NCBI RefSeq assembly: GCF_035501035.1
Contig: NZ_DATJWR010000325.1
Span: 10,841 to 74,840 of the forward strand
Reading direction: 5' to 3'
From: Paraburkholderia sp.
GTDB lineage: Bacteria; Pseudomonadota; Gammaproteobacteria; Burkholderiales; Burkholderiaceae
DNA length: 64,000 bases
Under the pieces are notes generated by a model. It worked only from the letters and a program-made list of their open reading frames with translations, had not been told where the DNA came from and ran no database searches. Both the position numbers and the translations under genes were made by a program. Each line of letters begins with the position of its first letter. The stretch's first letter is position 1. Below, piece after piece: positions 15,501 to 20,014 of the stretch.

Positions 15501-16568
15501 TCAGGGCGCCGAGGCCGGCTTTGCCGGCACGGCCATGGCGCCCGCAGCCGACGCCGCAACGGGCGCCGAAGCCGTAGCAGGCGCGGAAGCTGCGGCCGCC
15601 ACGCCTGCGATGCCCACGGCGGCCGCCGCAGCGGCACCCGTGCCGGCAGCGGCTGCACCCGTCGTCGCCGCGCCGCTCGCTGCTGCTGCTGCGCTGGAAT
15701 CGCCCGGGTCCTCATAGTTCGGCAGGCCGTTGTTCGAAGCGCCCGAACCGCCAGCGCCGCCCTTCGCCCCCGCGCCACCCGATTCACCCGGATCCTCGTA
15801 ATTCGGTGCGCCGTCGTTCGGTTTGCCGGCGCCGTCCGCCCCGCCTGGTTCGTCATAGTTGGGCAGCGGCGCAGTGTTGCCCTGCGAGCCGCGAATCAGC
15901 GCTTCGCGCTGCTGGCGGTATGCGTCGCGCACGAACGAATACGGGTCGAGCGCCGCCTGCTTCAACAGGTCGGTCGCGCCAAGCAGGTCCGAACGCGCGC
16001 TGATGAACTGCGCGATATACATCGGATTGCGTACGGCCGGCTCCATGTAGTGGATGACGCCCAAATACACGTCCGCGCCCATGCCGATGCCGTCGCGCAC
16101 CGAGCTCGGCCCGAACAGCGGCAGCACGAGATACGGGCCGGCCGGCACGCCGTAATGGCCCATCGTGAGGCCGAAATCCTGGTGATGCTTGGGTAGCCCC
16201 GCCGGGGTCGCAAAGTCGATCAGGCCGCCCAGGCCGAAGACCGTATTCATGGCGATGCGCATGAGGTCTTCGGTGGCGTCGGTGATCTTCAGCTGCAGCA
16301 GGTTGTTGGCGAGATTGCCGACATCGCCGATGTTCGAGAAGAAGTTCGTGATCGCCTGGCGCAGCGGCTGCGGCGTCACCTTCTGGTACCCCTTCGCGAT
16401 TGGCTGCGCGAAGTAGGTATCGAGTTTGTCGTTGAACGTGAAGATCGCACGATTCGCAGGCTCGAACGGGTCGCCCGGGTGGCGGTCGGGGCCCGTGGCG
16501 CAACCCGAAGTCACGAGGAGCGCCAGGCTCGCCGCCGTCAGGGTGAGCGCGACTTGATTCTTCTTCAT
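15501..16568 (-). CDS. MlaA/VacJ-family lipoprotein with long low-complexity C-terminal tail
   Basis: Lipobox [64 protein letters not shown]; ATGA overlap with the hpnN stop. Confidence 0.92.
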
Positions 16569-19192
16569 TGATCGATCCCCTGAATTTGCTTTCTGGCGCG
16601 CTTCGCGCGCGGCTTGCCCATCAGCACCGGCTGGAACACCACGGCGCCAATCAGCGTACAAACGAGAGACAGTGCGAGCAGCTTGCCCATGCTCGACGTG
16701 CCCGGATGATGCGAAAGCCACAGGCTGCCGAACGCCGTGCCGGTGGTCGCGGCCGAAAAAAGCACCGCGTGTGTGAGGCTCGAATGCAAGAGGCCGGTCT
16801 GCCCCGCGCGCCAGGCCATCACAAAATAGATTTTGAACGCGACGCCGACGCCGAGCATCAGGGGAAGCGCGATGATGTTCGCGAAATTGAGCTGAATGCC
16901 GAACACGACGCACAGCTCCAGCGTCACGAGCGCCGATACCAGCAGAGGAATCAGCGTGCGCAGCACGTCGCCGAAATTGCGCAGCGTGATCCACAGTAGC
17001 ATGGTAATGAGCAGCACCGACCACGCGGCGGCCTCCAGGAACGCGAGGATGATCACGTTGGCCGAGTGCAGGATCGAGATCGGACCGCCGATCGCCCTCG
17101 GCTCCGCCGCCTTCACGGCGTGCGCGAAGCGCGCGAGCATCACGTCGTCGTTAGGGTCGACGCCCGGCGGCACGAGCGGCGCGATGTCCACGATCGCCTG
17201 GCCGGTCGGCGCCACCCAGTCGCGCACCATCTCGGGCGGCAGGTTCTCGCGCGTGATCCTGGTTGGCTGCAGGAGGCGCGCGAGCTGCGCGAAAGCGAGC
17301 GTGAGCGGCTGGCTGAAGGCGGCTTCCGCGCGATCGCGCGTGGCCGGGCTCGAGTTGGCGAGCTTCGCGAGCGAGTCAGACAAGTGCTTCGCCTCGGCCG
17401 CGCCCGGCCCCGGATGGTCGCTGGCGGCGAGCTCGAGCTGGTTGGCCGCGCGCTTGAGCGTCTGGACGCGCACCTCGTCGGTGACGGGCGTGGCCGGCTG
17501 CTGCGTGAGCGCGGGCAGGAGCTGCTGCGCGGCGCTCGAGATCAGCATGAGCTTTTGCTGCTGGTCGTCGGGGATCAGCGAGCTGAGCGTGGTCGCGCGC
17601 GCCACCTCCGGCAGCTTCGAGAGCTTCGCGGCAATCTTGTCGGCCTCTTCGAGCGAGGGCGCGAGCACGCTCACGTCGTTGATCGAGATGACGGGCGAGT
17701 TCTTGAGCGCGAGCAGCGTCGCCATCGACTCGGTATGCGGATCCTTCAAGTGCAGCGGATTGAAGTCGAAGCGCAGGTGCAGCAGCAAGGGCGTCGCGCC
17801 GACCACGACGATGAGCGTGCCGATCAGCACGGGGTTGCGATGCTCCGCGAGCCATTTGTCGACGGGCGCGAGGAACGCGAAGCCGGGTGAGGCGCGCTCA
17901 CCCCTCGGCTTGAATACCCTGATGAGCGCGGGCAGCACGGTCATGTTGGTGATGTACGCCACGAACATGCCCACACCCGCGATCTGGCCGAGTTCCGAGA
18001 GACCGCGGTAGGCGGTCGGCAGAAAGGAAAAGAAACTTTCCGCCACGGCGATCGCCGCGAGCGTGAGCGGCACGCCGATCGTGCGCGCGGTCTTGAGGAG
18101 CGCGGCGTCGAGCCGTTCGTCCTGATAGCGCTCCTCGCGATACTTCACGCCGAACTGCACGCCGAAATCCACGCCTAGCCCCACGAACAAGACCATGAAC
18201 GCGACCGACAGCATGTTGAACGAGCCGATCATCCAGAGGCCGAGCGCGGCTGTAATGACGAGGCCGATCACGAGCGTGACGAGCACCGCGCCGATCAGCT
18301 TGCCCGAGCGCAGCGCGAGCCAGAGGATCACGAGCACGACGATGAACGTGATCGCGCCGTTGAGCGCCGCGCCGTCCTGGACCGAGGCGAATTCCTCGTC
18401 GGCGAGCGGCTGTTCGCCGGTCAGGCGCACGCGCGCGCCGAATTCGGTGTCGAGATGGAGCGAGGCGGCGGTCGCGCGAACCGCCTCCGAGGCGCTTGCG
18501 CCCGCCCGCAGCGCGGCGAAGTTGAGCACCGGCTGCACGGTGATGAACGCGAACGCGGGCTTGGCAGCCGAGTCCTTGTCGACGAGCGCGCGCCACGAGA
18601 ACGCGGCGCGCTTGCCCGCCAGCACCTGGTCGACGACGTCGGCGGCGCTGCCGAGCAGAGGCGCCATTTGCGACAGCTTCACCTGGCCGATCGTGAGCGG
18701 CAGCTGCAACGTGGTCGTGAGCGTGCCGGCGAGGCCCGCGAGGCTCGGGTCGCGGGCGAGCTGGTTGATGAGCGGGCGCGCCTGGACGAGCTGCCCCGTG
18801 GTCGAGAGCACGGTGGCCGTGGGCGGAAAGAGCAGGCCGTTGTGCTCGAAGAACGGACCGCCCGCGGGCTGCGAGACCGCGCTGAACTCGCGCGAATCGG
18901 CCTGGAGCGCATGGGTGAGCTTGCTGGCGGCGGCGTCGGCGAGCTCGGGAGCGTCGGCTTCGACGACCACGAGCAGCGTACTCGCGCGCTGCGGGAACGC
19001 CTTGTCCTTGGCTTCGAGGAGCGCGGCCCATTCTGCCTTGTTCTCGACGAGACCGCTGACGTCGGTATTGATCTTGAAATGCTTCGCGACGTACACGCCG
19101 CTCAGCACGGCGAGCACGATCGCAATTGCGATAACCCAAGCCGCGCGGCGTACCGACCAGGCGACGAGTTGGATGATGAATGGCTTCAGCAT
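16565..19192 (-). CDS. hpnN: Hopanoid transporter HpnN (MMPL/RND family)
   Basis: 875 aa with two membrane repeats, [27 protein letters not shown]; inside the hpn locus. Confidence 0.93.
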
Positions 19193-19405
19193 AAAGGCGA
19201 GGGGGCCTTGTCAATCAGGTTTTTTGATGCGAAGCGCTCAAGTATACCGGCCCCGCCCATCCCGGCGCGGCTCTTGCGCATATCTGCACGAGGCGCCGCC
19301 AGGGCAACGTATGCGCTAAAGCCGTTATACTGGCCCAGCCGGGAGTGTGGGCGTGGATAGACCGCACTGTACCCGTGCCTGAATTTCACTGTTCCAGAAG
19401 AGCGT

Positions 19406-20014
19406 ATGAAACGTTACTTGACCGCATTTCTCGCCGCCGCCTGTTTCACGGGCGTTTCGAGCGCCGCGTTCGCGCAGTCCTCGCCGGACGCTACCGTCAG
19501 GGCCGCCGTGGAAGGCACCGTGAAGGCGATGCAGGCCGACCCGCAGGCCCGTGGCGGCGACATGAGCAAGATCACGCAGGTGGTCCAGACCCATTTCGTC
19601 CCCGCCACCGACTTTCAGCGCACCACGCGCATCGCCGTCGGCAAGCCGTGGGCGACGGCCACGCCCGAGCAGCAGCAGAAACTGTATGAGCAATTCCAAC
19701 TCCTGCTCGTGAAGACCTACGCATCGTCGCTCTCGCAACTGCGCGATACCCAGGTGAGCTTCAAGTTCCTGCCCTCGAGCACGTCCGCGGGCGCGAAGGA
19801 CACCGTGGTGCAGTCGCATGTCCTCAGCAACGGCGGCGACGACGCGATCGACTACCGTCTCACGCAGACGCCCACTGGCTGGAAGATCTACGACATCAAC
19901 ATGATGGGCGCGTGGCTGATCCAGGTCTACCAGACGCAGTTCGCCGAACAGATCGCCAAGGGCGGCATCGACGGGCTCATCAAGTTCCTTACCGAGCACA
20001 ACGCGCGCAGCTGA
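19406..20014 (+). CDS. hpnM: HpnM / MlaC (Ttg2D)-like periplasmic lipid-binding protein
   Basis: Signal peptide, TDFQRTTRIAVGKPW, WKIYDINMMG, YQTQF; divergent from hpnN. Confidence 0.85.
   Translation: MKRYLTAFLAAACFTGVSSAAFAQSSPDATVRAAVEGTVKAMQADPQARGGDMSKITQVVQTHFVPATDFQRTTRIAVGKPWATATPEQQQKLYEQFQLLLVKTYASSLSQLRDTQVSFKFLPSSTSAGAKDTVVQSHVLSNGGDDAIDYRLTQTPTGWKIYDINMMGAWLIQVYQTQFAEQIAKGGIDGLIKFLTEHNARS

Follow-up and report, generated by a model that had tools for sequence, protein, structure and literature searches.

The window analysed here is a stretch of 64,000 nucleotides from Paraburkholderia sp. (NCBI RefSeq assembly GCF_035501035.1, contig NZ_DATJWR010000325.1, positions 10,841 to 74,840 of the forward strand). 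It carries three adjacent genes that make up a candidate route for moving hopanoids across the cell envelope: hpnN, a paralogue of the lipoprotein gene mlaA directly behind it, and a divergently oriented gene of the MlaC family. MlaA-domain genes enriched near shc and hpnN have been named hpnS by Lawrence, Pan, Ollikainen and Belin (bioRxiv 10.1101/2025.07.29.667474; mSystems 11:e00619-26, 2026). The three-part hopanoid route is already a published hypothesis for the orthologous Burkholderia genes, still unproven. New here, and a modest point, is that bacteria of the Burkholderia type appear to have recruited their own mlaC, and probably their own mlaA, separately from the HpnM lineage. The locus consists of the following genes and features:

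15501..16568, minus strand: MlaA-family lipoprotein paralogue, predicted to be in the outer membrane, 355 amino acids, 'HpnS' as named by Lawrence et al. (PF04333)
16565..19192, minus strand: hpnN, inner-membrane hopanoid exporter of the RND class (HAE3/MMPL type), 875 amino acids (profile and PDB matches)
16565..16568, minus strand: ATGA start/stop overlap between hpnN and the MlaA paralogue, indicating translational coupling (sequence read)
19193..19405, no strand: divergent intergenic region of 213 bp between hpnN and the MlaC paralogue (position between the genes)
19406..20014, plus strand: MlaC-family periplasmic lipid-carrier paralogue, 202 amino acids, HpnM-like but not a TIGR03481 HpnM (PF05494)

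The TGA stop codon of hpnN overlaps the ATG of the MlaA paralogue (...gatcaATGAagaag). Hopanoid genes lie on both sides of the trio, with hpnE (9301-10617) and the squalene-hopene cyclase gene shc (10701-12719) upstream and hpnH, ispH, hpnC, hpnB and hpnA downstream. This supercluster is interrupted by an insertion sequence (IS) remnant, a Cache kinase/NarL pair and cstA. A search of the contigs of the same genome finds one more MlaA gene and two additional MlaC genes outside the hpnN locus, and contig C168 carries a canonical mlaD-mlaA-mlaC-mlaB(STAS) row. The MlaA and MlaC genes that flank hpnN are therefore true paralogues. The window is high in GC, and the best tblastn segment of the MlaA paralogue reaches 87% identity with named species of Paraburkholderia.

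With the lipoprotein as query, 80 loci at species level were retrieved from Burkholderia and Paraburkholderia, and the arrangement is well conserved in them. In 79 of them hpnN is directly upstream of the MlaA paralogue. The two genes overlap by exactly ATGA in 39 loci and by 8 bases in 13; the remaining loci have other short overlaps or gaps. A MlaC-type gene is divergent upstream of hpnN in 75 of the 80, and four of the five exceptions are short contigs or contig ends. The trio arrangement is far beyond chance. The original prediction, made from the letters of the window alone, had placed the three genes here with the mlaA paralogue coupled to hpnN through ATGA, and both statements are confirmed by the sequence and by the synteny at 79 of 80 loci. 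A wider sample of 41 genomes of the family gives the same picture: the second MlaA is behind hpnN in all 11 genomes with two copies (seven genera), and the first is in the mla operon.

The identity of hpnN, which had likewise been proposed as a member of the hopanoid RND exporter family, is equally clear. The protein scores 1357 bits against the NCBIfam equivalog NF052374 (cut-off 1100) and 1027 bits against TIGR03480 (cut-off 752). It matches the B. multivorans HpnN structure 5KHN over its full length (1279 bits, residues 2-874 against 2-876), and also 6WU0, while the NCBIfam model of BstA is matched weakly (138.9 bits). The HpnN family extracts hopanoids from the inner membrane. Orthology, together with the hopanoid gene neighbourhood, suggests that the window HpnN does likewise.

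The divergent gene is the member of the trio for which the assignment changes. Its product matches PF05494 (MlaC) with 148.9 bits and begins with a signal sequence:

19406..19474, plus strand: Sec-type signal peptide, MKRYLTAFLAAACFTGVSSAAFA followed by Q (translation)

The putative cleavage site before this Q was placed by eye. A predicted model of the carrier has a predicted local distance difference test (pLDDT) score of 88 and a predicted template modelling (TM) score of 0.80, with pLDDT below 50 for residues 1-22. Its closest counterparts are MlaCs with bound phospholipid, from Ralstonia (2QGU, TM 0.91, 45% identity) and Bordetella (11IF, TM 0.90, and also 11HY). The MlaC fold with its lipid pocket thus appears to be retained in the model. 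A hopanoid-bound carrier was also sought in the PDB, and none was found; all of the MlaC-like entries (2QGU, 11HY/11IF, 8DTE) are phospholipid-binding, and canonical MlaC scores higher against them than either the paralogue or a true HpnM does.

In the original prediction this gene was called hpnM. A divergent MlaC-family gene is present, but it does not qualify as HpnM, scoring 80.8 bits against TIGR03481, for which the cut-off is 160.1. The corresponding proteins of B. diffusa and B. cenocepacia score 66.3 and 64.1 bits, and the canonical MlaC of the window's own genome, with 91.7 bits, scores above the window carrier. Against the same model the hpnN-linked true HpnMs of five other Burkholderiales families reach 197-223 bits. 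The carrier does share with HpnM its adjacency to hpnN, here and in the 75 loci with the divergent gene. At 37 conserved positions of canonical MlaC, window-type carriers keep 29 and true HpnM keeps 16. Judged by its sequence, the divergent gene is a family-specific duplicate of MlaC and falls outside the HpnM family, and the label 'HpnM' should better be replaced by 'MlaC paralogue (HpnM-like)'.

A tree of the MlaC superfamily (69 rows, rooted for display on the HpnM clade) agrees with this assignment. True HpnMs form one clade, set off by a branch with support of 100/100. The 13 window-type carriers form another (100/100), which has a stem of 0.86 substitutions per site and lies inside a MlaC clade made up entirely of the window's family, f1 (99/99). 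Forcing the window type and HpnM into one clade is rejected by the approximately unbiased (AU) test (p = 0.0077; p = 0.041 in a smaller first tree). These results point firmly to a separate origin of the carrier.

Beyond the family, co-occurrence was examined in 151 evenly drawn genomes of the order, 20 with an HpnN orthologue and 131 without. Twelve of the 20 genomes with HpnN have two or more MlaA copies, whereas one of the 131 without HpnN does; as the genomes are related, this contrast is a description rather than a test. The 131 include an unpublished genome (G026) with one MlaA and only weak RND matches; with this genome excluded the second figure becomes 1 of 130. Where other families have an extra MlaA it is also associated with hopanoid genes. 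In f23 and f36 it is directly behind hpnN; in f42 and f18 it is 2-3 kb from hpnN, beside hpnH or a true hpnM; and in f20 it is directly beside shc. True HpnM adjoins hpnN or other hopanoid genes in eight other Burkholderiales families. Linkage to hopanoid genes is seen in at least two distinct lineages of MlaA and in two of MlaC/HpnM, and such independent linkage argues for selection on the association.

The MlaA paralogue itself consists of a lipoprotein signal, a MlaA domain and a long tail:

16500..16568, minus strand: lipoprotein signal peptide and lipobox LVTSG-C23, with Ala at +2 (translation)
15900..16472, minus strand: MlaA domain, residues 33-223 (Pfam envelope)
15504..15878, minus strand: disordered C-terminal tail rich in Ala, Gly and Pro, residues 231-355 (predicted model)
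15843-15866, 15786-15809 and 15702-15725, minus strand: three tail motifs of the form [LA]PNY[DE][DE]PG (translation)

The PF04333 match has a score of 248.5 bits and spans profile positions 3-194 of 195. In an alignment of 32 sequences C23 is invariant, and G22 and A24 are nearly so. Under the +2 rule for lipoprotein sorting, established in E. coli, the Ala at this position would send the protein to the outer membrane. The modelled domain (residues ~30-230) has pLDDT values mostly of 70-90, and Foldseek aligns it with the MlaA structures 5NUO, 5NUQ, 5NUR and 8I8R (E 3e-9 to 1e-7, TM normalised to the target 0.77-0.81, 32-35% identity), which suggests that the helical ring fold of MlaA is retained. 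The paralogue keeps 52 of the 53 positions at which 59 canonical MlaA sequences show at least 85% conservation; the other two groups of hopanoid-linked MlaA keep 41-42. The enterobacterial MlaA equivalog NF011672 gives 143 bits, below its cut-off of 375. The canonical setting of MlaA, with mlaFEDCB and its ABC/MCE partner, is not found here; the paralogue adjoins hpnN instead. The gene does correspond to HpnS as operationally defined, that is, a MlaA-domain gene beside hpnN in a hopanoid producer.

The tail has pLDDT values below 50 at residues 231-351. One of its motif copies reads LPNYEDPG, and the copies are spaced by stretches rich in Gly and Ala. Between one and four copies are found in 79 of the 80 orthologues, with spacers that drift. 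A looser form of the motif, [LVA]PxY..(D/E/G), is present in the tails of both the family's canonical MlaA and its hpnN-linked copy. It is absent from all 12 proteins of the other two groups linked to hopanoid genes and present in only 2 of 29 MlaAs from outside the family. The tail probably tethers the carrier, or HpnN.

In a tree of 82 MlaA rows, from which the tails were left out, the 11 paralogues of the family type form one clade nested in clades made up only of MlaAs from the family (100/98 and 98/93). The other hopanoid-linked groups stand apart, one comprising f23 and f36 (100/100) and the other f2, f18, f20 and f42 (99/96). A single origin of all hopanoid-linked MlaA was considered and set aside; the free trees split these proteins into three groups, and the AU test is borderline (p = 0.048 with 49 rows, p = 0.115 with 82). 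HpnS as operationally defined is probably not monophyletic, although the AU tests are not firm evidence against one origin. A separate origin is thus favoured for the lipoprotein, where for the carrier it is firm. The tail motif is an independent character, and it agrees with an origin of the MlaA paralogue within the family. In one genus (genome G169) the hpnN-linked MlaA (L181:4706-5614, minus strand) grouped with the genome's own canonical MlaA (L165:1192-2187, minus strand) in a quick tree (Shimodaira-Hasegawa-like approximate likelihood ratio test 88). The careful tree places all 11 paralogues in one clade, with weak support (44/96). Gene conversion between the paralogues could explain the grouping in the quick tree. 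Taken together, the trees suggest that in Burkholderia, Paraburkholderia and their close relatives the Mla-type parts are duplicates of the bacteria's own mlaC and, most likely, of their own mlaA, and not the ancient HpnM.

Several individual genomes depart from the common pattern of MlaA copies. The one HpnN-negative genome with two MlaAs (G030, contig C15:85868-86443, L042:6851-7738, minus strand) has a very divergent extra copy with an end branch of 1.89, and no hopanoid gene was found within 7 kb of it. In P. oxyphila the hpnN-type MlaA is present as two closely similar copies, one behind hpnN (L088) and one (L066, NZ_BAYD01000061.1) for which hpnN and a MlaC-type gene are absent within 5 kb. 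In the small genomes G143 and G096 (f42) and G062 (f2), the only MlaA found is the hopanoid-linked copy (L010, L011 and L044), and because of this a hopanoid-linked MlaA can exist without a canonical one; two other sampled f2 genomes had no MlaA that was found. Three f42 genomes (L010:827-2599, plus strand; L011:13030-14796, minus strand; L012:13368-15146, minus strand) carry a true HpnM domain at the C-terminal end of a family-2 glycosyltransferase, the two being fused in one open frame of ~590 amino acids. The fusion sits between hpnH and the hopanoid-linked MlaA, and it may be a Rosetta-stone link that ties hopanoid modification to the carrier.

The function of these genes has been approached in two earlier studies. 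Lawrence et al. (10.1101/2025.07.29.667474) proposed that hopanoids pass from HpnN to a periplasmic HpnM shuttle and from there to HpnS at the outer membrane. They presented an AlphaFold 3 model of a dimer of BMULJ_05342 and BMULJ_05340 of B. multivorans with diploptene bound, and noted that a VacJ-like lipoprotein was already part of the TIGRFAM genome property for hopanoids. Somprasong et al. 2020 (PMC7157819) found that B. ubonensis with a transposon in the VacJ-family gene that follows hpnN had a lower minimum inhibitory concentration of meropenem, 24 instead of at least 32 µg/ml. Citing unpublished work, they described the lipoprotein as the second gene of the hpnN operon, likely located in the outer membrane and required for pump function; their paper, which predates that of Lawrence et al., also speaks of an 'hpnN-hpnM operon'. 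Transposon sequencing (Tn-seq) and barcode sequencing (BarSeq) papers on B. cenocepacia were considered as a further source and rejected, the vacJ in them being the canonical BCAL0304 and not the hpnN-linked copy.

A mechanism consistent with these data would begin with HpnN, a proton-driven RND pump of the inner membrane, extracting hopanoids made by the neighbouring shc, hpnH and hpnA-E genes. These would be passed, directly or via the periplasm, to the secreted MlaC-type carrier. The carrier would then dock on the MlaA-type lipoprotein in the inner leaflet of the outer membrane, which would act as the portal for lipid entry. The ATGA coupling would cause the lipoprotein to be made in fixed proportion to HpnN, and the tail of the lipoprotein may capture the carrier or reach the pump. 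What is inferred in this scheme is that the cargo is a hopanoid and that transport runs outward, together with the physical contacts and what the tail does. It seems fairly probable that the three genes constitute one envelope-trafficking module that serves hopanoid trafficking. That the MlaA paralogue receives hopanoids is a narrower claim, and we would give it slightly less than an even chance.

Several observations weigh against such a dedicated route. Five sister genera of the same family have an HpnN above the cut-off and a divergent carrier of the window type, with only a canonical MlaA. In families f32 and f51, HpnN and a true HpnM occur with no second MlaA in the sampled genomes. A strict three-part route is not universal, and since the five genera and the two families do without the MlaA paralogue, the outer-membrane part is dispensable or replaceable. 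The core of MlaA is nearly unchanged and gives no sequence sign of a switch to hopanoid cargo. The carrier, which by sequence is a family-specific MlaC duplicate and not HpnM, is no different in this respect; the structures nearest to its model are phospholipid-bound MlaCs with 39-45% identity, and its sequence shows no sign of a new cargo. Neither Lawrence et al. nor Somprasong et al. report hopanoid binding, lipid-transfer or membrane-fractionation data for either partner, and the statement in the original prediction that the outer-membrane step is undemonstrated holds for both studies. The further claim made there, a dedicated three-part hopanoid route, stands in part. As a module it is strong on genomic grounds (synteny, coupling, co-occurrence with HpnN, export signals and folds), but the carrier is not HpnM, the MlaA core is almost unchanged and the full set is not universal.

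Some of these features could instead reflect phospholipid housekeeping, which is the main rival explanation. The paralogues would still move glycerophospholipids, as Mla does, and would be co-expressed with HpnN in order to remove or rebalance those displaced by hopanoid insertion into the outer membrane. The 52 of 53 positions kept in MlaA and the 29 of 37 kept in the carrier (16 in true HpnM) are consistent with this, as are the phospholipid-bound MlaCs that match the carrier best and the fact that both paralogues are young duplicates of housekeeping genes. However, HpnN is the only inner-membrane partner at the locus, which has nothing of the MlaFEDB type. The long carrier stem (0.86 substitutions per site) after duplication suggests altered constraints, both protein families have independent lineages associated with hopanoid genes, and AlphaFold 3 places diploptene in the pocket of an orthologue (Lawrence et al.). 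On balance the phospholipid explanation appears unlikely.

The long tail and the coupling to hpnN may instead indicate a pump of two parts. Here the lipoprotein would act directly on HpnN through its flexible tail of ~125 residues, which would reach across the periplasm, and the MlaC-type protein would be an accessory or belong to a separate step. The lipoprotein gene is indeed the only one translationally coupled to hpnN, and the disordered tail with its repeated, conserved motifs is specific to the family. Against it stand the five sister genera, which keep HpnN and the carrier without the lipoprotein paralogue. Moreover, across the order a MlaC/HpnM-type gene accompanies HpnN more often than a MlaA-type gene does, and the tail motif is also present in the family's canonical MlaA. 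A two-part pump seems rather improbable.

The direction of transport bears on both the three-part route and its last alternative. Mla is generally held to work inward (retrograde), and an outward route would need the hand-over from MlaC to MlaA to be reversed, which is a further point against the three-part route as drawn. If the module instead had an inward or homeostatic role and drew hopanoids, or hopanoid-lipid A species, back out of the outer membrane, the parental MlaA-to-MlaC direction could be used without re-engineering. RND pumps of the HpnN class, however, export from the inner membrane, and an inward role is considered very unlikely.

The preferred reading, an outward module, can be combined with the trees. 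The presence of the carrier without the MlaA paralogue in five sister genera indicates that duplication of the carrier was a wider and probably older event; duplication of MlaA would be an addition in a subset, or was lost elsewhere. Bacteria of the Burkholderia type may have rebuilt the periplasmic and outer-membrane legs of the route from their own genes, first mlaC and then, in a subset, mlaA, and wired both to HpnN, in parallel to or in place of the ancient HpnM (with a MlaA-like partner) that serves other Burkholderiales. This is a tentative reconstruction, about which doubt marginally outweighs belief. If true, the carrier and portal of Mla would be generic lipid adaptors that can be plugged in again, here serving an RND pump and a triterpenoid with very few changes in the MlaA core.

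Comparison with known systems shows which parts are shared. The HpnN-HpnM-HpnS system of Lawrence et al. has the same three families, arrangement and mechanistic proposal as the window. Its modelled proteins come from B. multivorans; the orthologues that were aligned (B. cenocepacia and other members of the cepacia complex) are 57-71% identical and have identical synteny. The Burkholderia carrier is called HpnM by these authors, whereas in the present analysis it falls short of the HpnM model and clusters with the MlaC of its family. They leave the origin of the families open; for the window type the present trees indicate a separate duplication at the level of the family. True HpnM (TIGR03481/IPR017842) shares the MlaC-like domain and the adjacency to hopanoid genes with the window carrier, but the two differ in score (197-223 against 80.8 bits) and belong to separate clades (the 100/100 branch and AU p = 0.0077 given above).

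The Mla system itself (MlaFEDB, MlaC and MlaA with OmpC/F; 5NUO, 8I8X, 2QGU) has the folds, conserved residues, lipoprotein anchor and soluble periplasmic carrier in common with the window, and the tail of MlaA may be a carrier-docking element in both. The window proposal differs in that an RND proton antiporter would replace the ABC/MCE complex, the cargo would be a pentacyclic triterpenoid and transport would be outward. The window genes are also outside the mla operon, and the canonical set coexists with them on contig C168. A further parallel is the sterol transport system of Methylococcus, in which, reportedly (Zhai et al.), an RND pump (BstA), a periplasmic binder (BstB) and an outer-membrane binder (BstC) act together. 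The logic is the same, with an HpnN-like RND protein and periplasmic and outer-membrane binders for a polycyclic triterpenoid, and the likeness lies in the architecture alone; neither BstB nor BstC belongs to the Mla family.

For the passage of hopanoids across the periplasm after HpnN the locus provides a clean and conserved three-gene candidate, already flagged by others. Hopanoids harden outer membranes, aid tolerance of acid, detergent and polymyxin in Burkholderia, and leave a geological record as hopanes. As the MlaC and MlaA copies are little diverged and coexist with the originals, paralogue swaps and a short list of changed residues could show what determines preference for a triterpenoid or a phospholipid. 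Genera without the MlaA copy provide natural controls.

One MlaC gene of the genome lies apart from both the trio and the mla row. This third, orphan copy (PF05494, 165 bits; genome G000, contig C142:47835-48320, L004:1462-2196, minus strand) is beside an AI-2E-family transporter and groups with the family's canonical MlaCs in the first tree. No MlaA, HpnN or hopanoid gene was found in the 3.5 kb examined around it, and it was discounted as part of the system on this basis.

The 213-bp spacer between hpnN and the MlaC paralogue presumably holds the promoters of hpnN-hpnS and of the carrier gene; a promoter scan of this spacer gave no sigma-70 consensus. At the other end of the two-gene operon a terminator scan gives one candidate:

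15406..15437, no strand: GC-rich hairpin with a stem of 13 bp, 64 nucleotides past the hpnS stop codon and abutting the IS remnant

This hairpin likely marks the end of the hpnN-hpnS operon. The IS remnant beside it, directly downstream of the operon (window 14041-15441), is derived from a transposase of the IS110/IS1111 type (PF01548 and PF02371). On the opposite side of the trio, window positions 20133-24919 hold a Cache-domain HisKA_3 kinase, its presumed NarL-type partner and a CstA-family transporter, which lie between the MlaC paralogue and hpnH and split the hopanoid cluster.

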